In this document: one piece after another, positions 1,054 to 19,703 of the stretch
Layout of the letters: each line of letters opens with the position of its first letter
Numbering within the stretch: the first letter of the stretch is position 1
From: a virus
Taxonomy: Duplodnaviria > Heunggongvirae > Uroviricota > Caudoviricetes
Length of the DNA: 19,703 bases
Reading direction: 5' to 3' (one strand)
Virus record (IMG/VR): IMGVR_UViG_2778261252_000009
Coordinates: 1-19,703 of that record
The notes under the pieces: generated by a model
Told to the model about the DNA's origin: nothing
Databases searched by the model: none
What the model saw: only the letters and a program-made list of their open reading frames with translations
Made by a program: the position numbers and the translations under genes

Positions 1054-1078
1054 TAAAAAGCCCTCATGTCAGAGGGCT
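1054..1078 (-). terminator. Putative intrinsic terminator or attenuator hairpin immediately upstream of the int start codon
   Basis: Minus strand reads AGCCCTC-TGACAT-GAGGGCT-TTTTTA-ATG: 7-bp stem, 6-nt loop, T-run. The GAGGG that would serve as the int Shine-Dalgarno lies in the 3' stem arm. Confidence 0.45.
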
Positions 1079-1126
1079 AAATTTAACTGTATGTTTGACC
1101 AGTGGTCAATGTATGTAAATATTAAA

Positions 1127-2896: not shown

Positions 2897-2939
2897 TTTA
2901 GACTCCTCCAGTAAGTATTTAAAAGTAATGTCTGCAATG

Positions 2940-3878
2940 TTATTGTATTGTTAAGATAATGCTGGCTATAATTTGAATATCCTCAATGGAACACTCAAAA
3001 TCCTTACTCCCACCAGAAACAAGAATTTTGTTCTTAGGTAAGCGAGTTAACTCTTTTAAAGATAACTCATTGTCAATTCCTACTAACCATTTTCCATCTC
3101 TAATTAGGTGAAATTCTTTATCACATATGACATGTTTTTCTCCATTGCTTACAAACATCAAGCTGCTAGTTTCTTGCTTCGGAAGTAGACACCGATCCAT
3201 GGATAAAAAACCTGACTCGACAAGCACGCCATTGACCAAATTGAACTTATTTAAAATTACAGTGTTTTCTTCTTGTGAACTATTTGGTGTTTCGATTCCT
3301 GTAACTAGCCAGGCGAGATCCGCTTTGGTTTCTAATGCGCATTTAATCACCCAATCCGCAGGGAAAGAATCTCGCATGTATCGTGTGGCTAATGTGCTTT
3401 TTGAAATACCAAGGTGGTCGGCTAAGGCTTGGCGGGTTTTAAACCCGTAAGCATTAACAATCCTCTCTATCGTGGCTTTTCCTCCGTTAGTAAGCTCAAT
3501 GTGATTCTCAATGCGGCGCTTAAAGGATGATTGATGAGCGTTGCTGTTAAACCCCTCATGTGGGACTGTTTCATCATGTTGTTCCACATAAGGGGGGAAA
3601 CTTTCTTCTGCATTGTTAGAACCAAAGGCCAGCCATTCTAGGGATGCGCCAGTTTCCATTGAACATATAACAACCCAATCAGCAGGGAAGGTATCGCGTG
3701 CATATCTATTAGCCATTGTGCTTTGTGAAATACCAAGATGCTTACAGAAGGCTTGGCGTGATTTGAAACCATAGGCCTTGAGTATCCTCTCAATGACTTT
3801 TTGCCCTCCACGATTCTGCATGACCATAGCTTTCAGACTATCTTCAATATGGCGAAATGTGATTTTTTGAGTTGACAT
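2940..3878 (-). CDS. cI: CI-like prophage repressor with tandemly duplicated N-terminal HTH domain
   Basis: 312 aa. Two copies of a ~62-aa motif (residues 25-86 and 133-194, IERI..AYGFK.RQA...HLGIS.ST.A.RY.RD.FPADWV..C..ET.A.L.WL..G), about 39 of 62 identical by hand alignment. Sits divergent from apl-cII in the 186 cI position. Confidence 0.7.
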   Translation of the reverse strand: MSTQKITFRHIEDSLKAMVMQNRGGQKVIERILKAYGFKSRQAFCKHLGISQSTMANRYARDTFPADWVVICSMETGASLEWLAFGSNNAEESFPPYVEQHDETVPHEGFNSNAHQSSFKRRIENHIELTNGGKATIERIVNAYGFKTRQALADHLGISKSTLATRYMRDSFPADWVIKCALETKADLAWLVTGIETPNSSQEENTVILNKFNLVNGVLVESGFLSMDRCLLPKQETSSLMFVSNGEKHVICDKEFHLIRDGKWLVGIDNELSLKELTRLPKNKILVSGGSKDFECSIEDIQIIASIILTIQ

Positions 3879-3965
3879 ATTCTTTATGTGAACCTATTCT
3901 CCGTTTTGTGATGTTTTGTCACGATTAATACCGGCTCACCACAAGCCAATAGGAGATGTTGCATC

Positions 3966-4187
3966 ATGACCCCTAACATTTCAATAACTCTGAATACGCC
4001 ACACGTCACAATTGAGCGTTATAGCGAACTTACTGGTCTTTCTATCGACACCATCAACGATATGCTGGCAGATGGTCGTATCCCTCGCCATCGCCTTCGG
4101 AAAGACAAGAAAAGAGAAAAGGTAATGATCAACCTTGCTGCTCTTACCGTTGATGCACTTACTGATTGCAATGTTGTATTCAACTAG
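3966..4187 (+). CDS. apl: Apl/Cox-like small HTH excisionase and regulator
   Basis: 73-aa ORF, first gene rightward of the switch region, RBS AGGAGA upstream; position equivalent to 186 apl. Confidence 0.55.
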
Positions 4188-4219
4188 TTCCATTTTGGGA
4201 TGTATCAGGAGTGTCGACT

Positions 4220-4729
4220 ATGTTTGATTACCAAGTTTCCAAACATCCACATTTTGATGAAGCCTGTCGTGCATTTGCATTGCGCCACAACTTGGTGCAA
4301 CTGGCAGAACGTGCAGGTATGAATGTGCAGATTCTGCGGAACAAGCTGAATCCAGCTCAACCTCATTTATTAACCGCACCAGAAATCTGGCTGCTTACCG
4401 ATCTGACTGAAGATTCAACGTTGGTAGATGGTTTTCTGGCACAGATTCACTGCCTGCCATGCGTACCAATTAATGAGGTGGCAAAAGAGAAACTGCCACA
4501 TTACGTCATGAGTGCAACCGCAGAGATCGGGCGTGTTGCTGCAGGTGCGGTATCTGGCGATGTAAAAACCAGTGCAGGTCGTCGTGATGCTATCAGCAGC
4601 ATTAACTCTGTAACACGACTGATGGCGTTGGCTGCTGTTTCATTGCAGGCCCGTTTACAGGCTAACCCTGCGATGGCGAGTGCAGTTGATACCGTGACTG
4701 GCCTCGGTGCTTCATTCGGTTTGCTGTGA
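4220..4729 (+). CDS. cII: CII-like transcriptional activator, phage 186 type
   Basis: 169 aa from ATG at 4220 with RBS AGGAGTG. N-terminus [19 protein letters not shown] matches my recollection of 186 CII, which is also 169 aa. Confidence 0.8.
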
Positions 4730-4736
4730 GGTGCTT

Positions 4737-5033
4737 ATGCTGACGAAAGAACCATCATTTGCATCGCTGCTGGTAAAACAAAGCCCGGCAATGCACTACG
4801 GTCACGGCTGGATCACAGGTGAGGATGGAAAACGCTGGCATCCATGTCATTCACAAGATGAATTGCTGTCTGAATTGACCACGAGGAAACGGAGAAAGTC
4901 CAAATGTATGCGGCAGAAAGTGAAGTGGTTTATCAGTTTCGTTACAGAGGGGAGAGTTATTCAGTACCTGAAGATGATTTGCTCTGTTGCTATCCGTCAT
5001 TGTCGGGCGATGGCAGTTACTTTTTCGCGTTAA
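4737..5033 (+). CDS. Hypothetical early protein, translationally coupled to cII
   Basis: ATG at 4737 with GAGG 5 nt upstream, 8 nt after the cII stop. Overlaps the next ORF by ~130 nt in another frame, so the true 3' end is uncertain. Confidence 0.4.
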   Translation: MLTKEPSFASLLVKQSPAMHYGHGWITGEDGKRWHPCHSQDELLSELTTRKRRKSKCMRQKVKWFISFVTEGRVIQYLKMICSVAIRHCRAMAVTFSR

Positions 5034-5128
5034 AGGATGGGACGTTTTTACGGGGAGAGCAGGTTAAAGAGACGATACGAAAAAATGTATCTCCTCTTGA
5101 GCGTTACCGTAAGAACAAAGAACGATAG
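4904..5128 (+). CDS. Hypothetical early protein
   Basis: 74-aa ORF with good RBS GGAGAAAG 5 nt upstream of ATG. Confidence 0.5.
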   Translation: MYAAESEVVYQFRYRGESYSVPEDDLLCCYPSLSGDGSYFFALKDGTFLRGEQVKETIRKNVSPLERYRKNKER

Positions 5129-5150
5129 CTGCGTTTGGGGGATATGAAGT

Positions 5151-5492
5151 ATGGCAATTAATGGCGCTGCAGCAACTGTTCCATTAAGCCCCGGTGAACG
5201 CCTGAATGGACTTAATCACATTGCGGAGTTAAGGGCGAAAGTTTTTGGCCTGAATATTGAGTCAGAGCTTGAGCGGTTTATTAAAGATATGCGTGATCCA
5301 CGGGATATCAATAATGAACAAAATAAACGGGCACTGGCTGCCATATTCTTTATGGCAAAAATTCCAGCTGAACGTCATAGCATCAGCATTAATGAGCTGA
5401 CCACTGACGAAAAGCGGGAGCTGATTAAAGCAATGAATCATTTTCGTGCAGTGGTGAGCTTATTTCCCAGACGGCTAACCATGCCGAATTAA
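5151..5492 (+). CDS. Hypothetical early-region protein
   Basis: 113-aa ORF, RBS GGGGGA upstream, same strand as the early operon. Confidence 0.5.
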   Translation: MAINGAAATVPLSPGERLNGLNHIAELRAKVFGLNIESELERFIKDMRDPRDINNEQNKRALAAIFFMAKIPAERHSISINELTTDEKRELIKAMNHFRAVVSLFPRRLTMPN

Positions 5493-5559
5493 CCAACTAA
5501 TGAAATTAATGGCGTAAACCCGCCGGGCATCCCTTTATCTAAATTCAGGAGAATTGATT

Positions 5560-5793
5560 ATGCGTAATATTGAAACCCTCACGACTAAAACCGGACCGGA
5601 TGACGCAGGGCTTAATATTTTACTGACAGAGGCTCGTCTGGAAGAACGCCGGGCAAGGGCTGAAGCAATGGCAGCTCGCCTTGATAGCCTGGCGTGTCAT
5701 ATCTCATCCCGTCAGCTAAACCACGTGGAAGCGGCAGAACTGCTGCGTGTGACTGCTGAAGCAATCCAGAACGAAGCGCAGGAGATCCACTAA
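5560..5793 (+). CDS. Hypothetical early-region protein
   Basis: ATG at 5560 with AGGAGA 7 nt upstream; its stop TAA overlaps the next ATG (TAATG). Confidence 0.5.
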   Translation: MRNIETLTTKTGPDDAGLNILLTEARLEERRARAEAMAARLDSLACHISSRQLNHVEAAELLRVTAEAIQNEAQEIH

Positions 5794-6020
5794 TGGCTGA
5801 TGCAATGGATCTCGTACAGCAGCGCGTTGAAGAAGAACGCCAGCGCCATATCCGTGCTGCCCGTGCCAAAACGCCGGGCGTGTCCCGCGTGCTTTGCGTT
5901 GAGTGTGAAGCGCCAATTCCGCCAGCACGCCGCCGTGCCATTCCGGGTGTGCAGCTTTGCATTACCTGTCAGGAAATCGCAGAGCTGAAAAGCAAACATT
6001 ACAACGGGGGTGCTGTATGA
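5793..6020 (+). CDS. TraR/DksA-type C4 zinc-finger protein
   Basis: 75 aa with CVECEAPIP...CITCQ (CxxC-N17-CxxC); P2-like phages carry such a gene upstream of A. Confidence 0.7.
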   Translation: MADAMDLVQQRVEEERQRHIRAARAKTPGVSRVLCVECEAPIPPARRRAIPGVQLCITCQEIAELKSKHYNGGAV

Positions 6021-6874
6021 GCACCATCCTGAAATGGGCGGGAAATAAAACCGCCGTAATGTCCGAACTGAAAAAACATCTTCCTGCTGGTCCGCGACTA
6101 GTTGAACCTTTCGCGGGTTCCTGTGCTGTGATGATGGAGACGGATTATCCCTGCTATCTGGTTGCGGATATTAATCCTGATTTAATCAACCTCTATAAAA
6201 AGGTTGCCGCTGATTGTGAATCGTTTATATCTCGCGCCAAAGTTTTATTTGAGATCGCAAACAGGGAGGTGGCTTATTACAACATAAGGCAGGAGTTTAA
6301 TTACTCAACTGAAATTACTGATTTCATGAAAGCGGTATATTTCCTGTATCTCAATCGTCACGGTTACCGTGGGTTATGTCGCTATAACAAGAGCGGGCAT
6401 TTCAACATTCCCTACGGTAATTATAAAAATCCGTATTTCCCTGAAAAAGAAATTCGCGCTTTTGCAGAAAAAGCCCAGCGAGCAACGTTTATCTGCGCCA
6501 GCTTTGATGAAACGCTGGCGATGTTGAAGGCGGGGGATGTGGTGTATTGCGATCCGCCTTATGACGGTACGTTTTCCGGCTATCACGCTGACGGCTTTAC
6601 TGAAGATGACCAGTATCACCTGGCATCCGTTCTTGAACATCGGTCATCAGAAGGACATCCGGTCATTGTTTCTAACAGTGACACATCCCTGATCCGTTCG
6701 CTGTATCGCAATTTTACTCACCACTATATCAAGGTAAAACGCAGCATCGGCGCAGCAGCTGGTGAGAGTAAATCAGCAACAGAAATCATTGCTGTTTCCG
6801 GGCCGCGCTGCTGGGTGGGATTTGATTATTCGCGTGGCGTGGATAGTTCTGCCGTGTACGGAGTACGTGCATGA
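6017..6874 (+). CDS. dam: DNA adenine methyltransferase, Dam family, with no adjacent restriction gene
   Basis: 285 aa. N-terminal LKWAGNK and FAGS motifs (AdoMet binding), catalytic DPPY ([10 protein letters not shown]), [15 protein letters not shown] similar to E. coli Dam. Start overlaps upstream stop (ATGA) and stop overlaps A start (ATGA). Confidence 0.9.
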
Positions 6875-9285
6875 GCCATGCCGATATGAGCAACTGCTGC
6901 GGCTTTAACGAGGCTGCCGCATCGTTCTCATGGAACAGCCCGAAAAAGGCCATTAACCCTTATCTGGACCCGGCGGAAGTTGCGCCGGTTTCTGCGCTTT
7001 CAAACCTGATCACTCTGTACGCTGCCGATAACGAGCAGGAACAACTGCGCCGCGAGGCACTGAGTGATCAGGTCTGGGAGCGTTATTTCTTTAATGAATC
7101 CCGTGATCCTGTCCAACGCGAAATAGAGCAGGATAAGCTCATTAGCCGGGCAAAGTTGGCGCATGAGCAGCAGCGTTTTAACCCGGACATGGTCATTCTG
7201 GCAGACGTCAGCGCCCAGCCCTCCCATATCAGCAAGCCGCTGATGCAACGTATTGAATACTTCAGCAGCCTGGGCAGGCCAAAGGCTTATTCCCGCTATT
7301 TACGTGAGACGATTAAGCCATGTCTGGAACGACTGGAGCATGTACGCGACAGCCAGCTATCTGCATCTTTTCGTTTTATGGCAAGCCATGTAGGGCTGGA
7401 CGGCCTGCTGATTCTGCCTGAAATGAGTCAGGATCAGGTGAAACGCCTGTCTACCCTTGTCGCTGCGCATATGAGCATGTGCCTTGATGCAGCTTGTGGT
7501 GATTTGTATGCCACCGATGACGTTAAGCCAGAAGAAATCCGCAAGACATGGGAAAAGGTGGCAGCGGAAACCCTGCGTCTGGATGTCATCCCGCCTGCGT
7601 TTGAGCAACTCCGTCGGAAAAGAAACCGCCGTAAACCCGTGCCCTATGAACTCATTCCGGGTTCGCTGGCGCGTATGTTGTGCGCCGACTGGTGGTACCG
7701 GAAATTATGGAAAATGCGTTGCGAATGGCGGGAAGAGCAGTTGCGTGCTGTCTGCCTGGTCAGCAAAAAAGCATCTCCCTATGTCAGCTATGAAGCCGTG
7801 ATGCATAAACGTGAGCAGCGCCGCAAGTCACTGGAGTTTTTCCGTTCTCATGAACTGGTGAACGAAGAGGGCGACACGCTGGATATGGAAGACGTGGTAA
7901 ACGCCAGCAGCAGCAACCCGGCGCACCGCCGCAATGAGATGATGGCCTGTGTTAAAGGTCTGGAGCTTATCGCGGAAATGCGCGGTGACTGCGCCGTTTT
8001 CTACACCATTACCTGTCCGTCACGTTTCCATTCCACGCTCAATAACGGCAGACCAAACCCAACCTGGACAAATGCGACGGTAAGACAAAGCAGCGATTAT
8101 CTGGTCGGCATGTTTGCTGCATTTCGTAAGGCGATGCACAAAGCCGGGTTGCGCTGGTATGGCGTGCGGGTGGCTGAGCCGCATCATGACGGTACAGTTC
8201 ACTGGCACCTGTTGTGTTTCATGCGCAAAAAAGACCGCCGCGCCATTACTGCATTGTTGCGTAAGTTTGCCATCCGTGAAGACCGCGAGGAACTGGGTAA
8301 TAACACTGGTCCACGCTTTAAATCTGAGCTGATAAACCCGCGCAAAGGAACGCCGACAAGCTACATCGCGAAATACATCAGTAAGAACATTGACGGGCGT
8401 GGTCTGGCTGGCGAGATCAGCAAGGAAACGGGTAAATCCCTGCGTGATAACGCTGAATACGTTAATGCCTGGGCGTCTCTGCATCGTGTTCAGCAATTCC
8501 GCTTCTTTGGTATTCCGGGACGTCAGGCTTACCGTGAACTTCGCTTGCTGGCTGGTCAGGCGGCAAGGCAACAGGGTGACAAAAAAGCAGGTGCGCCGGT
8601 ACTGGATAACCCGCGTCTTGATGCCATTCTGGCTGCTGCTGATGCTGGTTGTTTTGCCACCTACATCATGAAGCAGGGCGGCGTACTGGTTCCCCGCAAA
8701 TATCACCTCATCAGAACCGCTTATGAAATCAACGAAGAGCCAACCGCCTATGGCGATCACGGTATTCGTATTTATGGCATCTGGTCACCCATTGCAGAGG
8801 GCAAGATCTGCACTCATGCAGTGAAGTGGAAAATGGTTCGTAAGGCCGTTGACGTTCAGGAGGCGGCAGCCGACCAGGGCGCTTGCGCCCCTTGGACTCG
8901 TGGCAATAACTGTCCCCTTGCTGAAAATTTGAACCAACAAGGGAAAGACAAATCAGCTGATGGGGATACCAGAACGGATATCACCCGCATGGATGACAAG
9001 GAGTTGCACGATTACCTGCACAGAATGAGCAAAAAAGAGCGCCGGGAACTGGCAGAAAGATTACGCCTGGTTAAACCGAAACGGCGTAAAGACTACAAAC
9101 AGCGAATTACAGAGTATCAGCGTCAGCAGCTCGTCTATGAGCTGAAGTCCAGAGGATTTGATGGTAGCGAGAAAGAGGTCGATTTACTCCTTCGCGGCGG
9201 CAGTATTCCGTCAGGAGCAGGCCTGCGTATCTTCTATCGGAACCAGCGTTTGCAGGAAGATGATAAGTGGCGGGATCTGTATTAA
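6871..9285 (+). CDS. A: Rolling-circle replication initiation endonuclease, P2 gene A family
   Basis: 804 aa. HUH motif HWH at codons 444-446 (8200-8208) and paired catalytic tyrosines YIAKY at codons 498-502 (8362-8376), as in the phiX174 A / P2 A superfamily. Confidence 0.85.
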
Positions 9286-9377
9286 TTACGCGGGTTAACA
9301 ATTCGTGCTCTTAATAATACCAGGCATATCAGGCTGATGAACGTAAAAAAACGTTTTACATCAGTAAGATTATTATA

Positions 9378-9397
9378 TACTGTAAATATAAACAGTG
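9378..9397 (+). promoter_or_regulatory. LexA (SOS) box upstream of the tum/dinI-like module
   Basis: TACTGTAAATATAAACAGTG matches the CTGT-N8-ACAG consensus exactly (CTGT 9380-9383, ACAG 9392-9395), about 40 bp upstream of the ORF starting at 9438. Confidence 0.65.
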
Positions 9398-9437
9398 GTT
9401 ATGTATACAGTATTGCTTTGGTGTCATAGGAGGAAAG

Positions 9438-9626
9438 ATGCAGGACTATTTTTTGGAGTCTTTGAAGCTCCAGCGCATTGATTTTTTTCTTAAGCTTGTA
9501 GCGGCTAGTGAGTGTAGTGATGAAGAGAAGGGGCTGGCTCTGCAGTGGGTTTCTGAACTGACAGATGAACTCATGGCAAAAATCAGAACCCACGAATACA
9601 ACCGCTCAATGGATGTCATCAGCTGA
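9438..9626 (+). CDS. Small protein downstream of LexA box; possible Tum-like antirepressor component
   Basis: 62-aa ORF with RBS AGGAGG; function inferred from position only. Confidence 0.4.
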   Translation: MQDYFLESLKLQRIDFFLKLVAASECSDEEKGLALQWVSELTDELMAKIRTHEYNRSMDVIS

Positions 9627-9636
9627 GGTGACTTTT

Positions 9637-9870
9637 ATGCGCATTGAAATAATGATCGATAAAGAGCAGAAGATTAGCCAGTCTACACTGGACGCCCTTG
9701 AATCCGAGCTTTACCGCAATCTGCGCCCCCTGTATCCCAAAACGGTAATTCGTATCCGCAAAGGTAGCTCTAACGGTGTGGAACTGACCGGACTGCAACT
9801 GGACGAAGAAAGAAAACAAGTGATGAAAATTATGCAGAAGGTGTGGGAAGACGACAGCTGGCTGCATTAA
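9637..9870 (+). CDS. DinI-family protein
   Basis: 77 aa starting MRIEIMIDKEQ...LDALESELYRNLRPLYP...KIMQKVWEDDSW, resembling E. coli DinI (MRIEVTIAK...). RBS GAGG 8 nt upstream. Confidence 0.7.
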   Translation: MRIEIMIDKEQKISQSTLDALESELYRNLRPLYPKTVIRIRKGSSNGVELTGLQLDEERKQVMKIMQKVWEDDSWLH

Positions 9871-10073
9871 GAAACGTTGCTGGCGTCTGAACTTGCTTCT
9901 GGCGTCAGCAAGGTTGAACAACGAGCTGTGCGAGGCGTTAGCTCTGTGGTGCATGTCTATGCCGCATGAGATCGCATGATCGTTTGAGGATTGTTTTTGC
10001 TAAGGCCTGCCAGAACTGGCGGGCTTTTGCGTAGATCATGCAGGTGCATGAAAACCACTACATAAAGCGGGCA

Positions 10074-10099
10074 GGCGTGGCGGGGATACGAGCGCGCAC
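10074..10099. other. cos-like remnant (possible degenerate cohesive-end site)
   Basis: GGCGTGGCGGGGA matches the first 13 nt of the 186/P2 19-nt cohesive end as I recall it (GGCG[T/A]GGCGGGGAAAGCA[T/C]); the remaining 6 nt differ. Lies in a GC-rich non-coding stretch between the dinI-like gene and the cargo gene. Confidence 0.4.
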
Positions 10100-10218
10100 T
10101 TAAGGATAAATTGAAGTTGATTTAATTTTTCGACATGGATAATCTTAACTACGTATGATTATTGATAAAAAATAAACATAAAAAATTGTAGCGGATCTTA
10201 AAACTTATTAGGATTAGT

Positions 10219-11280
10219 ATGCTTAAAACAAATAAGGTATTTATTGACACACAAACGTACGTAAAGGCTGGTCTTCATTTTGAGGGGGTAGCATTTAAAG
10301 CTTTCCATGAATTATGTGCGAAAGGTGATTTAGTCTTAATTACAACTACAGTTGTAGAGAGAGAAGTAAAAGGTAAAATAGAGGAATCAATAAAGGATGC
10401 TCTGCAGGCTATAAACACAGTACAAAGAAAAGCTAGGCTTTTGAATAGTATTGATAATGGACCGCTCCATGGTTTTTTTCAGCAATTTAACGAACATGAA
10501 ATTCACGAAGCAGCACAAAAAGTTTTTGATGATTTTTTGAAAGGATGTCACGCCAAATTAGCTACAATAGAAGTGATAGATCTTAATGAGGTTTTAGATA
10601 AATACTTTGGCAAAGAACCACCATTTGGGCAAAATAAGAAAAAAAGTGAGTTTCCTGATGCAATCACTTTAGCTGCGGTAGAGCGATTTGTTAATGATGA
10701 AGATGTGTATATCATTTCTGAGGATAGTGACTTAAAAAATTATTGTGATGGTAAAAACAATCTTCATCAAATTGATTCACTTGATAAGTTTCTAGGTGAA
10801 TACAATACGCATACAAACGAATTAAGTAATAAATTGATGCAGTTTATCGAAAGCAAACGTGAAGACATAAGAGCGGACGTAATTGCCCAACTCAATGATG
10901 CCGATGGATATAACGTTTCAACTTGGGAAGACGCTGAATTGGATTCATTTGAAGTCGTCAATATTGATGACTTTGAACCATCAATAATTAAGATTAGCAA
11001 TAATTATTGTCTAGCGACCTTCTCTGTTTCTGTAGATTTTGAAGTTACTGTTTCTGGTCCAGACTTTAATAATGGGTATTGGGATAGCGAAGATAAAGTA
11101 ATGATTCCAATGGAGACAACCACACGAACTGAAGTTCAAGAGATTAGTTTCGATGTTGAAATTGAAGTTATGTATGAAATCGAGGATGGTGAATTAACAG
11201 ATATCGCATTTGATGTGAATATTGATAAGTTATCCCGAGGGATTGAGTTCTCTATTGAAGAAAATAATTTTGAATATTAA
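10219..11280 (+). CDS. Cargo protein with PIN-like N-terminal domain and acidic beta-rich C-terminal domain; candidate anti-phage or abortive-infection effector
   Basis: 353 aa. N-terminus KVFIDTQTY (Asp in first strand), later TLAAVERFVNDEDVYIISEDSDL resembling distal PIN acidic motifs. C-terminal half very D/E rich. Visibly AT-rich, flanked by an AT-rich upstream region and a hairpin terminator. Confidence 0.55.
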   Translation: MLKTNKVFIDTQTYVKAGLHFEGVAFKAFHELCAKGDLVLITTTVVEREVKGKIEESIKDALQAINTVQRKARLLNSIDNGPLHGFFQQFNEHEIHEAAQKVFDDFLKGCHAKLATIEVIDLNEVLDKYFGKEPPFGQNKKKSEFPDAITLAAVERFVNDEDVYIISEDSDLKNYCDGKNNLHQIDSLDKFLGEYNTHTNELSNKLMQFIESKREDIRADVIAQLNDADGYNVSTWEDAELDSFEVVNIDDFEPSIIKISNNYCLATFSVSVDFEVTVSGPDFNNGYWDSEDKVMIPMETTTRTEVQEISFDVEIEVMYEIEDGELTDIAFDVNIDKLSRGIEFSIEENNFEY

Positions 11281-11289
11281 TTCGTTCAT

Positions 11290-11320
11290 AACGGCATCAT
11301 TGTGATGCCGTTGGGTTTTA
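11290..11320 (+). terminator. Hairpin terminator between the convergent cargo gene and Q
   Basis: AACGGCATCA-TTG-TGATGCCGTT (10-bp perfect stem, 3-nt loop) followed by GGGTTTTA. Confidence 0.6.
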
Positions 11321-12343
11321 TAATGTATATATTTCAAAATTTATAATTTCATGACCAAGCCATCTGTTTATTTCCATGAATCTTTTTTGAAGTGGTAATA
11401 GTTCATTTCTTACGAAGACGCAGCTCGCCTTCTCCACATCACCAAAACCCCCAACATTATTCGGCAAAATTCCCATCATCTGAGGCGGTACGCGGTGTGC
11501 CGCCATCATGTCATCACGGCTGACGTTCTTGATGTTCAGAAATTCATCCTTCGCCGCGACTTCTGACAACGGGATGATTTGAAGCCCGTCCTTTTTGCCG
11601 TTAGGCGAGTACATAAACAGGTTGCGGAAGTTGCCAGGGCCTTTGGCGCTTTTCATCGCATTGCGGAGGTTGTTCACATCCTCCTGGTTCTGCGCGGCAT
11701 CGGTCATGTACATGATGAAGCCTGCATGGCTGCCGTTAATGTAATACTTCCGGCGGAACAGCGTGGCGGACTCGTTGAGCAGGGCTGACGGAATGGCAGA
11801 AAGATAACCTGGTAGGCCGTAGATCTCCTGGTTGATGTCAGGTTCCATCAGATGAAAAATGCTGCCTTTCGTGAACTGATACGGCTGGGTTGTCATACCG
11901 TATTGCACAAACCAGTAGGTATCCAGATCTAACCCGCGTCGGGTGTATTTTGCCAGAGCAGGCTCAAGGGCGATAACTTCACCGAAGCGGTTCGTGCGTT
12001 TCTCCAGGTAGGCGTTACCAAATACCAGATAGTCCTGCACAAAACGTGAAAAAGCCTGCTGGCTGAGCAGCGGGTGAGGGATGTAGGTACTGGTCAGAAT
12101 GTTGCATTTCACCGCAATTGGTGAGCTGTGATGCACGGCGGCGCGGAAGGTTCGTGCCAGTCCGTCAAAGCTGACGGGCGGCTCATACCAGCGATCCATC
12201 TGTACGCATTCCACATAGTCCAGCAGTTCACGGCGGTCCAGAACAGGAACGGGATCGCCAAAGCTGAATGCTTCGGCTGAAGTTTGGCTTTTATGCTTGA
12301 GCTGATTCGTCGCCGCAGCGCGGTTTTTCTTACTCTTTCCCAT
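11318..12343 (-). CDS. Q: Portal protein, P2 gpQ family
   Basis: About 341 aa (P2 Q is ~344 aa by my recollection); ATG at 12341-12343 overlaps the stop of the upstream terminase fragment; gene order P then Q as in P2. Confidence 0.85.
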   Translation of the reverse strand: MGKSKKNRAAATNQLKHKSQTSAEAFSFGDPVPVLDRRELLDYVECVQMDRWYEPPVSFDGLARTFRAAVHHSSPIAVKCNILTSTYIPHPLLSQQAFSRFVQDYLVFGNAYLEKRTNRFGEVIALEPALAKYTRRGLDLDTYWFVQYGMTTQPYQFTKGSIFHLMEPDINQEIYGLPGYLSAIPSALLNESATLFRRKYYINGSHAGFIMYMTDAAQNQEDVNNLRNAMKSAKGPGNFRNLFMYSPNGKKDGLQIIPLSEVAAKDEFLNIKNVSRDDMMAAHRVPPQMMGILPNNVGGFGDVEKASCVFVRNELLPLQKRFMEINRWLGHEIINFEIYTL

Positions 12344-13323
12344 CAAAAAATCTCCACAATATTGCTGGTATTGGCGGACTCGCCCTGCAGCGGTTCATTA
12401 AACAGTGCGTGCATTGTTGCCCAGGCCAGATCGGCGTGGCTGGCTTCTTCGCTGCGGCTGGCTTCATAGGTCGGGCGGTTGCCACTGGCGGTGGTGGCGC
12501 GACGGATTGCCATAAATGACTGCGCTATGTCGGTGTGTCCGGCGTCAAACTCCAGACGGCGGTGGCTGATAATGTCGTAGGCCTTGAGTACCAGGGCGTT
12601 TTTGACGTTGGGGTTGTAGACAAACTCCCGGACGGCAGGAAAAAACACTTTCACGTTCTCGTAAACCCCGTGACCAACGCCGGTTGAGTCGATGCCGATA
12701 TAGGTCACGTTGTACTGTTCGGTCAGTTTTTTGATGGCGTCAGCCTGGGCGCGAAAGTCCATCCCGCGCCACTGGTGACGCTCAAGAATGCGGAACTTGC
12801 CGCCCGGCACGGCTGGCGGTGCCACCACCACGCATCCGGCACTGTCGCCGTTCTGCGTACCTTTCGCCGGGTCATAACCGATCCACACTTCGCGCCAGCC
12901 AAACGGGCGCAGTGCCAGTGCATGAAAGTCGGTCCAGACTTCCCAGCTGTCCACCATGCACGCCTGCAGCTCGCTGAGCGGGAACACGGACGCGAGATCG
13001 TCCACGAACTCGCACATCAGCAGGTTCTGGTATTCGTCCGGGCTGTACTCCATGCGCAACTGGTCAAGGTCGAACAGGTTGCAGCCGCCGCGCACCGCAT
13101 CTTCCACGGTGACTATCTGGCGGTATTGCCCGTCTGCGCACAGCAGGCCGGGGGCCAGATTGCTGTGGGACAGGTCGATGTCCACCTTATCGGCTTTGTT
13201 GCGCCCACGGTTGAACAGCGCACCGGACCAGAACGGATACGGCAGCAGTAACTCGAACCAGCAACGCGTTGTCCTGGCTGGCTGGTGCACCACTGGCACT
13301 GCTGCGACGCGGGCTTGCTTCAT
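12343..13323 (-). pseudogene. P: Terminase large subunit (P2 gpP family), N-terminally truncated; only distal ATPase region plus nuclease domain retained
   Basis: 326-aa ORF with no Walker A; contains the RNase-H-like nuclease motif VWIGYDPAKG...D. P2 P is ~590 aa by my recollection. The ORF's 5' end overlaps the tape-measure fragment on the opposite strand. Confidence 0.75.
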
Positions 13324-14513
13324 CGGGCAATGCTGCGGGTTTACTTACTGCGCCGTTGTCGTCTTTGCGCCGCACGGCATCACTGACGGGAAATGTCCTG
13401 AAAACTGTAGCAGGTGCGCCGGTTGCACTTTTGCGGTCTGGATTATCCGGTTTACGTGCTGTTGCTGTGATGTTTATGAATCCTCTGGCGGTACTGCGCG
13501 GTGGACTGACCGCCGCAGGCACGGTGTTGCGAGTACTGGCATCTGGTCCACTGGCGATGCTGCGCGTTGCCCTGTATGCCATATCTGGTCTGTTAGGTGC
13601 TCTGCTCAGTCCGATAGGTCTTGTGGTTACTGCACTGGCAGGCGTGGCGCTGGTTGTCTGGAAATACTGGCAACCCATCACCGCATTTCTCGATGGCGTG
13701 GTGGAGGGATTCAAAGCGGCGGCAGGTCCCATCAGTGCTGCATTTGAACCACTTAAGCCTGTGTTTCAGTGGATTGGCGACAAAGTACAGGCGCTGTGGG
13801 GCTGGTTTACTGATCTGCTGACGCCCGTTAAGTCGACCTCTGCCGAACTGCAGAGCGCAGCGGCAATGGGGCGACGATTCGGGGAGGCACTGGCGGAAGG
13901 GCTGAATATGGTTATGCATCCGCTGGACTCCCTGAAATCTGGCGTTTCCTGGTTGCTGGATAAACTCGGCATTGTCAGTAAAGAGGCTGCAAAGGCGAAA
14001 CTGCCGGAAAGCGTGACGCGTCAGCAACCTGCGACGGTGAATGCAGACGGTAAAGTGATGATGCCATCGGGTGGTTTTCCATCATGGGGATATGGCTTTG
14101 CGGGGATGTATGACAGCGGCGGCTATATCCCGCGCGGGCAGTTTGGCATCGTCGGTGAAAACGGGCCGGAAATTGTTAACGGCCCGGCAAACGTGACCAG
14201 CCGGAGAAATACAGCTGCACTGGCTGCCGTTGTTGCCGGAATGATGGGCGTTGCTGCCGCGCCTGCAGAGCTTCCACCGTTGCATCCTTTGGCACTTCCC
14301 GCGAAAGGCGGCGAAGCGATGGTGAGTCGTGCAGCCACTGTGCCGCCCGTTCAACGGATTGAGGCACCGACGCAGATCATCATTCAGACGCAGCCAGGAC
14401 AAAGTGCGCAGGATATTGCGTGGGAGGTGGCCCGCCAGCTTGATGAACGTGAACGCAGGCTGAAGGCAAAAGCCAGGAGTAACTACAGCGATCAGGGGGG
14501 ATACGACGCATGA
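13269..14513 (+). pseudogene. T: Tail tape measure protein (P2 gpT family), C-terminal fragment
   Basis: 414-aa ORF, Ala/Leu/Gly-rich with GENGPEIV near the C-terminus, followed by U and D as in P2 (T is ~815 aa in P2 by my recollection). The 5' boundary of genuine T sequence is uncertain. Confidence 0.7.
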
Positions 14514-14995
14514 TGATGGTGCTGGGATTGTACGTGTTTATGCTGCGCACCGTGCCGTATCAGGAACTGCAGTATCAACGCAGCTGGCGACATGCGGCTA
14601 ACAGCCGGGTAAATCGTCGTCCGTCCACGCAGTTTCTGGGACCGGACAACGACATGCTGACGCTTTCCGGTGTTCTTATGCCGGAGATAACAGGCGGCAG
14701 GCTGTCGTTGCTGGCACTTGAGCAGATGGCAGAACAGGGGAAAGCATGGCCCCTGATTGAAGGCAGCGGCACGATTTACGGCATGTATGTGATTGAGGGA
14801 CTGAATCAGACTAAAACGGAGTTTTTCCGCGACGGTATGCCGCGCCGGATTGAGTTCACCCTGTCGCTCAAACGAGTGGATGAATCCCTGTCCGATATGT
14901 TCGGTGATCTCAGTGCGCAACTGAATAATCTGCAGGAAACGGCAACATCTGCTTTAAGCGATATCAGTAAAACGGTGGGAGGGCTGCTGTCGTGA
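14510..14995 (+). CDS. U: Tail protein, P2 gpU family
   Basis: 161 aa; start overlaps T stop (ATGA); synteny T-U-D. Confidence 0.8.
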   Translation: MMMVLGLYVFMLRTVPYQELQYQRSWRHAANSRVNRRPSTQFLGPDNDMLTLSGVLMPEITGGRLSLLALEQMAEQGKAWPLIEGSGTIYGMYVIEGLNQTKTEFFRDGMPRRIEFTLSLKRVDESLSDMFGDLSAQLNNLQETATSALSDISKTVGGLLS

Positions 14996-16092
14996 ATTTC
15001 AGCTCTGAGCTGCTTAACAAGGGCAACAAAACTCCCGCATTCAGCATCAGTATTGAGGGCAGGGATATCACTACTGTCCTGGATAATCGCCTGATGAGTC
15101 TGACGTTGACGGACAATAGGGGCTTTGAAGCGGACCAGCTTGATCTGGAGCTGGACGACGCCGACGGAAAAATCGTGCTGCCGCGCCGTGGTGCGGTCAT
15201 TACGCTGGCGCTGGGCTGGAAGGGGCAGCCGCTTTTCCCGAAAGGGGCATTCACGGTGGACGAGATTGAACACACTGGCGCACCGGACCGCCTGACTATC
15301 CGGGCGCGAAGTGCTGATTTTCGGGAAACGCTGAATACCCGCCGTGAAAAATCGTGGCATAAGACCACCGTCGGGGAAGTGGTGAAGGAAATAGCTGCGC
15401 GTCACAAACTGAAGATGGCACTGGGTAAAGACCTGTCGGATAAACCCGTGGATCATATAGACCAGACTAATGAGAGTGACGGCAGTTTTCTGATGCGGCT
15501 GGCGCGACAGTACGGTGCCATCGCGTCGGTGAAAAATGGCAATCTGTTATTCATCCGGCAGGGGCAGGGCAAAAGCGCCACTGGTAAACCACTGCCGGTG
15601 ATCACTATCACACGGAAGGACGGCGACAGTCACCGCTTTACCCTGGCAGATCGCGGAGCTTACACGGGCGTCATTGCCAGCTGGTTGCATACCCGCGAAC
15701 CCGCGAAGAAAGAAAGCACCACGGTGAAGCGTAAGCGCAGGACTAAGAAGCAGAAGAAAGAGCCGGAAGCGAAGCAGGGCGATTACCTGGTGGGTACGGA
15801 TGAAAACGTGCTGGTACTTAATCGCACTTATGCCAACCGGAGCAACGCCGAACGGGCAGCGAAAATGCAGTGGGAACGCCTGCAACGCGGCGTTGCATCA
15901 TTCTCGCTACAACTGGCGGAAGGGCGGGCAGATCTCTACACAGAAATGCCTGTGAAGGTCAGTGGCTTTAAACAGCCGATAGATGATGCGGAATGGACCA
16001 TTACGACTCTGACGCATACCGTCAGCCCGGATAACGGTTTTACGACCAGTCTGGAGCTTGAAGTGAGGATTGATGATTTCGAAATGGAATGA
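14992..16092 (+). CDS. D: Tail protein, P2 gpD family
   Basis: 366 aa, GTG start overlapping U stop (GTGA), RBS GGGAGGG; last gene of the tail operon before ogr. Confidence 0.8.
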   Translation: MNFSSELLNKGNKTPAFSISIEGRDITTVLDNRLMSLTLTDNRGFEADQLDLELDDADGKIVLPRRGAVITLALGWKGQPLFPKGAFTVDEIEHTGAPDRLTIRARSADFRETLNTRREKSWHKTTVGEVVKEIAARHKLKMALGKDLSDKPVDHIDQTNESDGSFLMRLARQYGAIASVKNGNLLFIRQGQGKSATGKPLPVITITRKDGDSHRFTLADRGAYTGVIASWLHTREPAKKESTTVKRKRRTKKQKKEPEAKQGDYLVGTDENVLVLNRTYANRSNAERAAKMQWERLQRGVASFSLQLAEGRADLYTEMPVKVSGFKQPIDDAEWTITTLTHTVSPDNGFTTSLELEVRIDDFEME

Positions 16093-16182
16093 TTCTTCGC
16101 AATGGAGAACTTTTAAGTTTGCAAAATGGAATAATGCGGTATCATTATTGTGAATTTAGCAAAAATGGGGAGAACTCGAAAA

Positions 16183-16401
16183 ATGATGATTTGCCCACTG
16201 TGTGGAAGTGCCGCCCATACTCGCAGCAGTTTTCAGGTATCTTCATTGACCAAAGAGCGTTACAACCAGTGCCAGAACATTAACTGCAGCCATACTTTTG
16301 TTACCCATGAAACTTTTGTTCGTTCGATTGCAACGCCAAAAGAGTCAAATCCGGTTCAGCCGCATCCAATGAAATCAGGACAGGTGGCGCTCTCTCTTTG
16401 A
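16183..16401 (+). CDS. ogr: Ogr/Delta-type zinc-finger late-gene activator
   Basis: 72 aa from ATG 16183 with CPLCGSAAH...CQNINCSHTF, matching the P2 Ogr pattern CPLC...H...C..NC and its 72-aa length. Confidence 0.8.
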   Translation: MMICPLCGSAAHTRSSFQVSSLTKERYNQCQNINCSHTFVTHETFVRSIATPKESNPVQPHPMKSGQVALSL

Positions 16402-16423
16402 CGCTGCCGCCATTTTGTCGCCA
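16402..16423. repeat. Putative attR core (right copy of direct repeat), immediately after the ogr stop
   Basis: CGCTGCCGCCATTTTGTCGCCA, 21 of 22 identical to 19-40. Confidence 0.6.
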
Positions 16424-16481
16424 TCGTTAAAAAACAGTGTTTCTAACATCATGATTTTAAACAGCTTAAATTTCAGGCAAC

Positions 16482-16524
16482 AAAAAACCCATCAACCTTG
16501 AACCGAAATGGCGGGGTTGATGGG
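16482..16524 (-). terminator. Intrinsic terminator of ybjL
   Basis: CCCATCAACC (16488-16497) pairs with GGTTGATGGG (16515-16524) around a 17-nt loop; on the minus strand the hairpin is followed by TTTTTT. Confidence 0.7.
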
Positions 16525-16636
16525 CTCCACAAAATGGGGACATCAAAGAAAAGCAGTGGCACTAATTAAGACTGATGCCCTGCGGAAAAGTTCTGCGGTT
16601 GTGCAAAAAAATTTCATTTTCAGGGCAACTTCAGTT

Positions 16637-18322
16637 TTATCCTAATCCTGGCCATACCATGACGATGATTGTCCCTGCCAGCGTCAGCAGGACGTTGGCG
16701 ATTGCGTAGGTGCCCGCATAGCCCAGCGCAGGGATGTTACTGCGAGCTGTATCACTGATGATCTCCATTGCCGGCGCGCAGGTGCGTGCGCCCATCATTG
16801 CGCCGAACAACAGTGCGCGGTTCATTCGCAATACATAAGCACCGAACAAGAAACAGATAACCACGGGCACAAGACTGACAATTAATCCGGCAATCAACAT
16901 CTGACCGCCAATCGCGCCCAGGCCGTTATTAATACCGCTACCGGCGCTCAGACCAACGCCTGCCATAAACACCATCAAGCCGAACTCTTTCACCATGCTT
17001 AATGCACCTTGCGGAATGTAACCGAAGGTCGGGTGGTTAGCACGCATAAAGCCCAGCATAATTCCGGCGAATAACAACCCGGCAGCGTTCCCCATGCCGA
17101 AACTGAATGTGCTGAACTGGAAGGTGATCATCCCGATCATCAGCCCAATAACAAAGAAGGCGCAGAATGCCAGCAGGTCAGTGACCTGGCTGTGAATCGA
17201 GATAAAGCCGATGCGATCGGCGATGGTTTTTACGCGGCGGGCATCGCCGCTGACTTGTAAAACGTCACCTTTGTTAAGCACGACGTTGTCATCTATCGGC
17301 ATCTCAATCTGGCTACGAATGACGCGGTTAAGGAAGCAACCGTGATCGGTCAACTTCAGTTGTGCGAGACGTTTACCTACAGCGTTATGGTTTTTAACGA
17401 CCACTTCTTCAGTGACGATACGCATGTCGAGAAGGTCACGATCGAAAACTTCTTTACCGTTACGGAAGCTGGGATCGAGTCGGGCATGGGCGTCGGGATA
17501 GCCTACCAACGCTATTTCATCGCCCATTTGTAGCACGGCATCACCGTCTGGATTTGCCAGAATCCCGTTACGTCGAATACGTTCAATGTAGCAGCCGGTT
17601 TGTCGATAAATACCCAGTTCACGCAGATTTTTGCCGTCGGTCCAGGCCACCAGTTCCGGGCCGACGCGATAGGCGCGGATCACCGGTAAATAAACCTTAC
17701 GGTTGGCATCAGTGTCCAGGCCACGTTCGCGGGCGATTTGCTGGGCGCTGGTCTGTAAGTCCTGATGCTGCAATTTCGGCAAGTAACGCGCACCAACAAT
17801 CAAACTCACCAGACCGATTAAATAGGTTAAGGCATACCCGAGGCTCAGATTATCCAGTGCCAGTGAGAGCTGCCTGCTTTCCATGCCGGAATGACGCAGT
17901 GTATCGCCAGCACCGACCAGAACCGGTGTCGACGTCATAGAGCCTGCTAACATACCGGCCGTCAGGCCAATATCCCAGCCAAACAGCTTACCTAACCCTA
18001 AGGCGATCACCAGCGCACTGCCAACCATCACCAGTGCTAACATTAGGTAATTTTTCCCATCGCGAAAAAAAATGGAAAAAAAGTTCGGTCCGGCTTCGAC
18101 CCCGACGCAGAAAATAAACAGCATAAAGCCAAGATTAAGCGCATCGGTGTTAATGCTGAAATGTTGTTGGCCTAATAACAGCGATACGACTAAAACGCCA
18201 ATGGAATTACCCAGTTGGATCGAACCAAGTCGTAACTTTCCGAGACATAGCCCAAGCGCGAGGACCACAAATAATAACAGAATGTAATTCCCATTTAACA
18301 ATTCGGCGACGTTTATATTCAC
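16637..18322 (-). CDS. ybjL: Putative transport protein YbjL (two TrkA-C domains flanked by membrane domains)
   Basis: 561 aa; N-terminus [34 protein letters not shown] matches E. coli YbjL as I recall it. Confidence 0.93.
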
Positions 18323-18591
18323 GGAGGCTAACTTCTTGTTTACTAGTAAGCTGTTGAAAGAAATGGTAATTTACGATAATGTTTTTTACCAGAATTCAGG
18401 GCGCAGATTCATTCAGCGCACCTAAACGATAGTAAAGTAACAATATATTTTACTAGTGTAATCACATTAGGTATCAACGGCTATATGAATTGCGTTGGCC
18501 TATATTAGCATGGAATGCGAAGCGGCTTTATCTTACTGAACGCCACACTGGCGAAAAATGTGTTCGATAGACGCAGTGTCAGGAGGAACGA

Positions 18592-18969
18592 GTGAAACAT
18601 AAACAACGTTGGGCGGGGGCAATCTGCTGTTTTGTCCTCTTCATTGTGGTGTGCCTTTTTCTGGCGACGCACATGAAAGGCGCTTTTCGGGCTGCCGGGC
18701 ATCCTGAAATCGGCTTGCTATTTTTCATTCTTCCTGGAGCAGTCGCCAGCTTCTTTTCACAGCGTAGAGAAGTCCTGAAACCTCTGTTTGGCGCAATGCT
18801 GGCGGCACCCTGTTCGATGCTCATTATGCGGCTGTTTTTTTCACCGACGCGCTCATTCTGGCAAGAGCTGGCATGGTTACTAAGCGCGGTGTTCTGGTGT
18901 GCGCTGGGGGCACTGTGTTTCTTATTTATCAGTAGTTTGTTTAAACCACAGCACAGAAAAAATCAGTAA
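18592..18969 (+). CDS. ybjM: Inner membrane protein YbjM
   Basis: 125 aa, GTG start with AGGAGG 5 nt upstream; hydrophobic; position between ybjL and grxA as in E. coli. Confidence 0.88.
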   Translation: MKHKQRWAGAICCFVLFIVVCLFLATHMKGAFRAAGHPEIGLLFFILPGAVASFFSQRREVLKPLFGAMLAAPCSMLIMRLFFSPTRSFWQELAWLLSAVFWCALGALCFLFISSLFKPQHRKNQ

Positions 18970-18992
18970 AGCCCTCAACGCGAGGGCTTGTC
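18969..18992. terminator. Bidirectional hairpin terminator between convergent ybjM and grxA
   Basis: AAGCCCTC-AACGC-GAGGGCTT directly after the ybjM stop and before the grxA stop. Confidence 0.6.
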
Positions 18993-18998
18993 AGACGA

Positions 18999-19256
18999 TC
19001 AGGCGTCCAGATTTTCTTTCACCCATGCAGCAAAATCGGTATAGCCGCCGATATGTTGCTGATCGACAAAAATCTGCGGCACGGTTTCTACGGGTTTACC
19101 TGCCTTTTGTTGTAGATCTTCTTTAGTGATCCCTTCCGCACGAATATCTACATACTGATACTGAAAATCATCGCGTTCATTGCTCAATTTCTCAGCCAGA
19201 TCTTTTGCACGCACACAGTAAGGGCAACCCGAACGACCAAAAATAACGGTTTGCAT
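18999..19256 (-). CDS. grxA: Glutaredoxin 1
   Basis: 85 aa from MQTVIFGRSGCPYCVRAK with the CPYC active site; ATG at 19254-19256. Confidence 0.93.
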   Translation of the reverse strand: MQTVIFGRSGCPYCVRAKDLAEKLSNERDDFQYQYVDIRAEGITKEDLQQKAGKPVETVPQIFVDQQHIGGYTDFAAWVKENLDA

Positions 19257-19415
19257 TATTTCTCTCCTCATAGATTTATGCCTGTAATGATCACGCTAAA
19301 ATGTATTCGCTGAAAGTAGGTTTAACCTGTTGCATTAATTGCTAAAAGCTATAACTGTTAAACACAATACAGTGAAAAGTTTTAGACTGAAGGCTCACTT
19401 TGCAGAGGGAAGCGT

Positions 19416-19703
19416 ATGCGCGCGATCGGTAAATTGCCTAAAGGCGTGTTGATACTGGAATTTATCGGAATGATGCTACTGGCGGTGGCGCTGCTGTCGG
19501 TAAGCGACTCCCTGTCGCTGCCTGAGCCATTTTCTCGGCCAGAAGTGCAGATTCTGATGATTTTTCTCGGTGTTTTGCTCATGCTTCCCGCTGCGGTGGT
19601 GGTTATTCTTCAGGTGGCAAAACGTCTTGCCCCACAGCTGATGAACCGTCCACCGCAATATTCACGTTCAGAAAGAGAAAAAGATAATGACGCCAACCAT
19701 TGA
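19416..19703 (+). CDS. ybjC: Small membrane protein YbjC
   Basis: 95-aa ORF ending at the window edge with TGA; hydrophobic segments; synteny with grxA. Confidence 0.85.
   Translation: MRAIGKLPKGVLILEFIGMMLLAVALLSVSDSLSLPEPFSRPEVQILMIFLGVLLMLPAAVVVILQVAKRLAPQLMNRPPQYSRSEREKDNDANH

Follow-up and report, generated by a model that had tools for sequence, protein, structure and literature searches.

A single-gene PIN_12 (DUF4935) protein, a predicted anti-phage nuclease related to Cosus, encoded next to cos in a defence hotspot of an Escherichia coli prophage of the 186/Fels-2 type

Proteins of the PIN_12 family (Pfam PF16289, formerly DUF4935) have been described as products of monocistronic genes, about 350 aa in length, which comprise a PIN domain of the VapC group with four to five conserved acidic residues and a helical insert after strand 2, as well as a C-terminal alpha/beta region without known structural homolog; no function was assigned to them (Matelska et al. 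2017, PMC5499597). Their anti-phage activity has been shown only recently, in the case of the Cosus and DS-5 systems. Here we describe a PIN_12 protein of 353 aa encoded in a 19,703-nt stretch of DNA (positions 1 to 19,703 of IMG/VR record IMGVR_UViG_2778261252_000009; hereafter, the window), which represents an E. coli chromosome with a P2-like prophage of the 186/Fels-2 type. The protein fits the description of DUF4935 exactly, including its length and its monocistronic gene. An earlier prediction, made from the nucleotide sequence alone (the original prediction), considered it a candidate undescribed defence effector that could not be assigned to any named family. This part of the prediction has to be withdrawn, as the protein is a member of PF16289 with the DUF4935 architecture known since 2017, it already has a RefSeq product name ('PIN domain-containing protein', WP_073511460.1), PIN_12 genes of the same hotspot are listed in Table S5 of Rousset et al., and two PIN_12 systems have been validated.

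Cosus (Brc24) is a single-gene 'PIN12' phage-defence integron cassette (Kieffer et al., bioRxiv 10.1101/2024.07.02.601719; Science 2025). It confers complete resistance to T7 at high and low multiplicity of infection (MOI), and no escapers were obtained. Its fitness cost is 11% in the first cassette position or when it is highly expressed, and under a strong promoter in PAO1 it was toxic or could not be transformed. The protein is predicted to form a homo-hexamer, and its T12A, D14A, and D96A substitutions decrease the protection more than 1e5-fold (Kieffer et al., 10.1101/2024.07.02.601719). DS-5 ('PN12'), reported with DefensePredictor, is a two-gene system that consists of WP_021513008.1 (DS-5A) and the PIN_12 protein WP_021513009.1 (DS-5B). 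Its defence is lost upon mutation of the PIN catalytic residues or deletion of the partner gene, and the latter unleashes no toxicity (DeWeirdt, Mahoney and Laub, Science 2026, PMC13092281).

Results of our analysis suggest, with a probability that we put at about 0.7, that the protein encoded in the window is a stand-alone, single-polypeptide PIN_12/DUF4935 anti-phage nuclease, which represents a sister subfamily of Cosus and is accessory hotspot cargo of the prophage. The observations behind this reading are the fold of the protein, the conservation of its active-site residues, the fact that it is homologous to defence proteins already validated, its organisation as a single gene, and the location of this gene and its homologs in a hotspot, in defence islands and on mobile elements. 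A single-gene, nuclease-type anti-phage role, as proposed originally, is the best reading of these data.

The profile search proposed earlier to verify the PIN-like character of the N-terminus gave a clear result. Residues 7-171 match positions 1-171 of the 172 positions of the PIN_12 profile (E = 1.6e-25), with a score of 90.9 bits at a gathering cut-off of 32, and the predicted fold of this region is VapC-like, with RNases as the nearest structural neighbours. In the AlphaFold2 (AF2) model of the whole protein (pLDDT 89, pTM 0.74), the alpha/beta PIN domain is followed by helices at residues 188-227 and then by a long-stranded antiparallel sheet. A database search revealed 159 homologs, nearly all of about 355 aa, full length, and mostly from Gammaproteobacteria. 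In the alignment of 34 homologs, residues D10, E49, D147, D169, and D171 are invariant, and so are N232, W236, G280-P281-D282, E291, E314, and E348 in the C-terminal part. The joint alignment with Cosus, DS-5B, and WP_169111967 demonstrates the invariance of D10, E49, D147, and D169 in all of them. The motifs indicated earlier as the source of catalytic acids, KVFIDTQ (with D10) and ISEDSDL (with D169 and D171), are placed correctly, but only D169 is the fourth canonical PIN acid, while D171 is invariant only within the subfamily of this gene. The scans of PADLOC, NCBIfam, and PHROGs gave nothing specific for the protein; the lack of a match in PADLOC-DB 2.0 is uninformative, as this release lacks models of Cosus and DS-5B as well. 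No solved structure of a PIN_12/DUF4935 protein was found.

For comparison with Cosus, the sequence of brc24 was taken from Table S3 of the relevant paper. As that DNA sequence was damaged by optical character recognition, and tblastn against it retrieved only the central motif, a clean protein sequence (P0313, 382 aa, Providencia stuartii) was obtained by database search. The protein from the window is 29% identical to P0313 over 235 aa (BLASTP, E = 3e-17). When families were compared, the alignment extended over 315 co-linear columns and deep into the C-terminal domain (hhalign 99.2%, E = 1.1e-19). Both proteins (about 355-382 aa) are encoded by single genes without a partner, both consist of the PIN_12 domain, two linker helices, and an acidic, beta-rich C-terminal domain, and both share the PPF..KK.EFPDA signature, the acidic tetrad, and the Y-x4-WED motif. 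Residues D14, D153, and D177 of Cosus correspond to D10, D147, and D169 here. Both are also cargo of mobile elements, although the carrier of Cosus is an integron cassette with attC, and that of the gene described here is a prophage hotspot. The residues T12 and D96 of Cosus are not conserved, and we therefore place our protein in a sister subfamily rather than in Cosus proper. In some Cosus-family proteins (P0411, P0412, P0414, P0426; 462-467 aa), the PIN_12 unit is preceded by a fused cold-shock domain (PF00313), which hints that the Cosus family acts on RNA or single-stranded DNA.

DS-5 occupies the same cos-to-portal slot in the same, 186-like, type of prophage and is preceded by the same DinI-like flank; also, the AF2 model of DS-5B has the same overall layout, with secondary-structure elements in a similar arrangement. 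However, the alignment of the two families (hhalign 98.1%, 228 columns) covers only the PIN domain and the linker helices, which still lie inside the region homologous to DS-5B and Cosus, and the C-terminal domains cannot be aligned by sequence. In addition, DS-5 requires a second protein, DS-5A (DUF5830 with an AcrIF4-like domain), encoded immediately upstream, while no DS-5A-like gene is present in the cargo module of the window, and DS-5A does not match the family of our protein (hhalign 0.4%). We do not regard the protein as a DS-5 member. The same hhalign value led us to reject the possibility that its C-terminal domain is a fused counterpart of DS-5A. The DS-5 locus contains extra genes, namely a 141-aa open reading frame (ORF) on the opposite strand (L014 4621-5046, minus strand) and, in the arrangement of Rousset Table S5 (NZ_NRZH01000197), a KAP_NTPase gene, which indicates that the hotspot slot can stack several modules.

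Among other predicted or known proteins, WP_169111967.1, a distant relative, aligns with the family of our protein over the full length (hhalign 98.9%), and its DefensePredictor log-odds, which is a prediction, is 13.8 (PMC13092281). The VapC toxins of type II toxin-antitoxin systems (VapBC) have the PIN fold and the metal-binding acids in common with our protein, which, however, is more than twice as long, has an extra obligate domain, and is not autoregulated from a toxin-antitoxin operon. No gene of a VapB antitoxin is present beside it, as indicated by the lack of a companion ORF, RNA repeats, and Rfam matches, and by the variability of neighbours among homologs. DS-3, another single-protein PIN system of DefensePredictor, was rejected as a relative because of its 340-aa split-PIN architecture, and so were HEC-03 (ABC ATPase and PIN) and HEC-09 (NYN) of Payne et al., whose architectures differ as well.

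The acidic and beta-rich character of the C-terminal part, recognised from the beginning, is pronounced. The C-terminal 168 aa include 41 D/E and 10 K/R residues (net charge -31) and are predicted to be rich in beta-strands. The C-terminal half is also acidic in Cosus (48 D/E vs. 11 K/R) and DS-5B (34 vs. 14). Conserved positions of this domain include Y231, W236-E237-D238, G280-P281-D282, E291, E314, and E348; its Y-x4-W-E-D motif is common to Cosus but is not found in DS-5B. A profile of residues 186-353 was used to search 1.84 billion representative proteins (E <= 1e-3) and produced 278 matches. Fragments and one spurious repeat protein were set aside from the 150 matches listed; the others among those 150 are all about 345-385 aa long and have the domain at about residues 186-355. 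The assumption that the domain is a portable sensor shared with other effectors was therefore rejected, as the same PIN_12 architecture occurs throughout the 150 listed of 278 matches. Mean pairwise identity within the family is 51% for the C-terminal domain and 52% for the PIN domain. The occurrence of the domain solely behind PIN_12 in the matches listed and its equal conservation imply that it is an obligate, constrained partner of the PIN domain and not a shuffled sensor cassette. The structural comparison proposed earlier to identify this domain gave only weak matches, to cystatin-like and NTF2-like folds. One could imagine, although we regard it as rather unlikely, that the domain serves inside the protein as a mimic of nucleic acid or as a pseudo-antitoxin, blocking the PIN active site either in cis or from another subunit of an oligomer until it is displaced by a phage nucleic-acid-binding protein or another phage trigger. 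If that were true, DUF4935 proteins would be immune switches uniting toxin, antitoxin, and sensor in a single chain; the divergence of the C-terminal domain between this subfamily, Cosus, and DS-5B would set the specificity of the trigger, and DS-5B would have handed a part of the job to its partner.

The gene differs from its surroundings in composition, as had been noticed. Its GC content is 0.338 as compared to 0.529 of gpA and 0.502 of the portal gene, and that of the whole cargo module (10100-11317) is 0.331. The 120 nt upstream are AT-rich, also in agreement with the original prediction, and contain a sigma70-like site (TCGACA-18-TATGAT, 10130-10159) that matches the consensus in 10 of 12 positions and is a candidate promoter, only a candidate; the number of promoter-like sites in this leader is not above the shuffled expectation. 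An AGGA sequence (10210-10213) ends 5 nt ahead of the ATG. The terminator postulated behind the gene was found as well, in the form of a perfect 10-bp inverted repeat (11290-11299 / 11303-11312) located 3' of the stop codon and followed by a T-run. No ORF of at least 37 aa was found in the cargo module outside the PIN_12 frame, and no credible small ORF, tandem RNA repeat, or Rfam family was found around the gene in the window. On these grounds, we dismissed an antitoxin of type III (RNA) or one that is a small protein. The unit is one gene. The module (10100-11320) is present, at an identity of at least 99%, in 36 of 5,426 complete E. coli genomes, and the 90%-identity cluster of the protein extends to Klebsiella and E. 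albertii. The accession WP_073511460 was not found in searchable papers or in the parts of supplement tables that were searched.

The gene is variable, non-backbone cargo of the gpA-gpQ cos-proximal hotspot. This defence hotspot of P2-like phages was defined by Rousset et al. 2022 (PMC9122126), in whose Table S5 PIN_12 genes of the P2 hotspot appear, although none of them was assayed there. It was revisited in NAR 2026, with about 19% of P2-like hotspots left unannotated by current tools. The assignment of the gene to the interval between A and Q, which was said to hold accessory genes, was right on both counts, but requires a refinement, since the cargo lies between cos and Q, with cos upstream. 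The region 10042-10098 of the window differs very little from the sequence annotated as a putative cos site in phage Cartapus (OV696611 1-59), and the similarity stops directly after it, which places the cargo (about 10100-11317) between cos and the Q stop codon. The exact 19-mer of P2 cos is absent from the window within 3 mismatches. The orientation of the gene is opposite to that of the late operon. When 60 phages were compared, their similarity to the backbone extended over no more than about 55-58% of the 9300-12400 region and skipped the PIN_12 gene. A survey of the interval for alternative cargo, as suggested in the original prediction, revealed that related phages sharing the flanks have genes of AIPR, Abi-alpha, TIR, DUF4145, or Hypoth_Ymh in place of PIN_12. 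P2 old/tin and other hotspot cargo have the same slot and the same low-GC, single-module organisation, although their proteins are unrelated to the PIN_12 protein.

Homologs of the gene occur in various mobile contexts, with no conserved neighbour gene among the seven contexts inspected. The Pantoea homolog (53% identity) occupies the A-to-portal slot of another P2-like prophage; the Pseudomonas aeruginosa one neighbours AbiTii at a Pf prophage boundary; the Salmonella one is located on an integrative and conjugative element (ICE), beside an AAA_15 and HNH (Septu-like) pair; and the Vibrio one belongs to a thyA-splitting island that also holds a Gabija-like pair. Another Pseudomonas homolog resides on a mobilisable island, and the Desulfocastanea one is next to DUF4062 and NYN genes. 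Relatives are also encoded by 87 plasmids, 58 of them conjugative. Among sequenced phages of the INPHARED collection, a homolog was found in one, Enterobacter phage ENT4 (PV844615; 41% identity, L015 4001-5056). The ENT4 record is unannotated, and no P2-like portal gene, gpA, or cos is present within 4 kb of the homolog, which indicates that the PIN_12 gene travels also on a different type of phage. In Pantoea sp. RIT-PI-b (L002 6236-7943), the homolog is preceded by genes of a 197-aa protein without assignment and of a 367-aa HTH_3/Peptidase_M78 (ImmA/IrrE-like) protein, and these two genes might constitute an additional, independent module of regulation or defence in that slot. The island of Vibrio coralliirubri (L008 1-13561), of about 12 kb, is apparently inserted in thyA, with fragments of the thymidylate-synthase gene at both ends, and contains CTD6, MC2, and AAA_23 genes, the PIN_12 homolog, and a Gabija-like pair of AAA_15-OLD-TOPRIM and UvrD genes.

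The defence phenotype of this subfamily, as well as its substrate, its trigger, and the role of the C-terminal domain, are inferred. In a lysogen, the gene would be transcribed from its own AT-rich candidate promoter up to its own terminator, and the protein at its native level would be harmless or restrained in uninfected cells. Upon infection with a heterologous phage, the Mg2+-dependent PIN site, formed by D10, E49, D147, and D169, would cut nucleic acid and thereby halt the phage development. The substrate would most likely be RNA, as in the case of VapC-type PIN enzymes and the structural neighbours of the protein. The C-terminal domain would control the nuclease by oligomerisation, autoinhibition and/or recognition of the trigger. 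By analogy with Cosus, protection may operate at the single-cell level rather than by abortive infection.

This reading draws its support from the invariance of the tetrad, the profile match to Cosus, the loss of protection in the Cosus D14A mutant (D14 corresponding to D10), the dependence of DS-5 on its catalytic residues, and the hotspot location. Several points weigh against it. Only about 21-29% of the residues are identical to those of Cosus, and the C-terminal domain used alone matches the Cosus family poorly (hhalign 34%). Two of the three residues crucial for Cosus have no equivalents: T12, invariant in the Cosus family, aligns with F8, which is invariant here, and D96 is located inside a Cosus-specific insertion that our protein does not have. 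Moreover, only T12A, D14A, and D96A are listed as strongly defective among 11 mutants of Cosus, a set that included D153A and D177A (10.1101/2024.07.02.601719), so that the paper does not document that Cosus depends fully on its canonical PIN site. A gp12 escaper hints at interference with genome injection and not at a simple RNase mechanism (Kieffer et al., 10.1101/2024.07.02.601719). Finally, the promoter is a consensus match only.

In one alternative reading, the protein does defend, but not by bulk RNA cleavage. It might act instead on the incoming phage DNA or on genome entry, providing direct immunity, or its PIN-like domain might mainly bind nucleic acids. Such a mode of action would be consistent with the protection by Cosus at high MOI without escapers, with the partial evasion of a weakened Cosus mutant by a mutation in the T7 tail gene product gp12, with the absence of mutants in canonical aspartates among the strongly defective ones, with the cold-shock domains of some Cosus-family proteins, and with the opinion of Kieffer et al., who term PIN12 'RNA-binding' and suggest a dual activity. 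We find it fairly improbable, as the four acids that bind the metal are kept without exception even between highly diverged subfamilies, which speaks for catalysis; in addition, DS-5 requires its PIN catalytic residues, and RNases are the nearest structural neighbours. In another scenario, the gene would be a single-chain addiction or toxin module, with the acidic C-terminal domain as a cis 'antitoxin', that serves mainly to stabilise the prophage or another mobile element. The VapC-like fold, the very acidic C-terminal domain in all three subfamilies, the lack of a separate antitoxin in the window, the cost and toxicity of Cosus, which under a strong promoter in PAO1 was toxic or not transformable, and the retention of the gene in a prophage remnant are all compatible with it. 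However, two tested relatives provide strong phage resistance, the deletion of the DS-5 partner unleashed no toxicity, the slot exchanges defence genes, and there is no sign of post-segregational killing here, and this scenario appears improbable.

The gene might also serve the phage itself, as a nuclease of lytic growth (in takeover of host RNA or DNA, or against satellites such as P4) or as an anti-defence factor. Its phage-borne location, adjoining cos and packaging genes, and the homolog in phage ENT4 could be explained in this way. A function of direct benefit to the phage is, however, difficult to reconcile with the presence of the gene in only 36 of the 5,426 E. coli genomes despite a common backbone, and with its replacement by AIPR, Abi, TIR, or DUF4145 genes in related phages. 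Most homologs reside on plasmids, ICEs, and chromosomal islands without phage context, and the gene, oriented opposite to the late operon, has its own terminator and candidate promoter. We therefore regard this possibility as very improbable and favour the reading of the PIN_12 protein as a stand-alone anti-phage nuclease.

Among PIN_12 systems, the gene offers a compact example that is native to E. coli and consists of one gene, which occupies the slot of DS-5 but encodes a Cosus-like C-terminal domain and has no partner. This combination makes it a convenient natural comparison for studies on the role of the C-terminal domain and on subfamily specificity. The protein also adds one more assignable item to those about 19% of P2-like hotspots that are unannotated. 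It represents a distinct subfamily of predicted defence proteins, whose kind and whose hotspot were both known before, and no new principle is revealed.

The features of the window, together with the parts of the PIN_12 protein, are collected in Table 1.

Table 1. Coordinates of prophage genes, cargo module elements, and PIN_12 protein domains in the window
Feature	Position	Strand	Remarks
Integrase	1-1053	-	
Old homolog	1127-2896	-	Between int and cI
CI repressor	2940-3878	-	
CII, Fil, Dam methylase			In this order between CI repressor and gpA
gpA	6871-9285		
62-aa ORF			Between gpA and DinI
DinI-like gene	9637-9870	+	Pfam DinI and RefSeq (strain D5); conserved backbone flank, A side of hotspot
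cos core	10042-10098	.	Left boundary of variable cargo slot
AT-rich leader of cargo module	10100-10218	+	Contains sigma70-like site and AGGA
ORF, PIN_12 protein	10219-11280	+	ATG start, 353 aa
PIN_12 nuclease domain	10219-10773	+	Residues 1-185; tetrad D10/E49/D147/D169; signature PPF-x3-KKK-x-EFPDA
Two long linker helices	10774-10902	+	Residues ~186-228; AF2 DSSP H188-212, H214-227
Acidic beta-rich C-terminal domain and stop codon	10903-11280	+	Residues 229-353
Intrinsic-terminator-like hairpin	11289-11313	+	10-11 bp stem, 3-nt loop, T-run; between PIN_12 and portal stop codons
Portal gene Q	11318-12346	-	Pfam Phage_portal and RefSeq; conserved backbone flank, other side of hotspot
Terminase, truncated	12343-13323	-	Next to portal Q
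Distal tail genes GpU and GpD, then host transporter gene			After truncated terminase

The prophage is a deletion remnant with the junction at about 13238-13330. Its terminase has lost about 260 residues from the N-terminus and is joined back-to-back with the 3' portion of a tape-measure gene (13269-14513, plus strand), which is followed by GpU, GpD, and an ORF of the size of ogr. The capsid and lysis genes and most of the tail genes are lost, and both defence cargo genes are retained. This junction was found in only 2 of the 5,426 complete E. coli genomes (VE-V10-F and VE-V11-M); other carriers of the PIN_12 gene, e.g., strain D5, have an intact prophage.

The other cargo gene, that of the Old homolog, is AT-rich as well (GC content of 0.353), and its product is homologous over the full length to Old, the exclusion nuclease of P2 (Pfam AAA_15 and OLD-like TOPRIM; E = 9e-235 with PADLOC Old). 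It occupies the int-cI slot, and P2 itself has Old in the A-to-cos slot. The neighbouring CI repressor ORF encodes 312 aa with two stretches of the Phage_CI_repr helix-turn-helix, as compared to 201 aa of CI in the related Pantoea prophage, and this size could mean that the N-terminus of the repressor has been duplicated or extended, or that the ORF was called too long.

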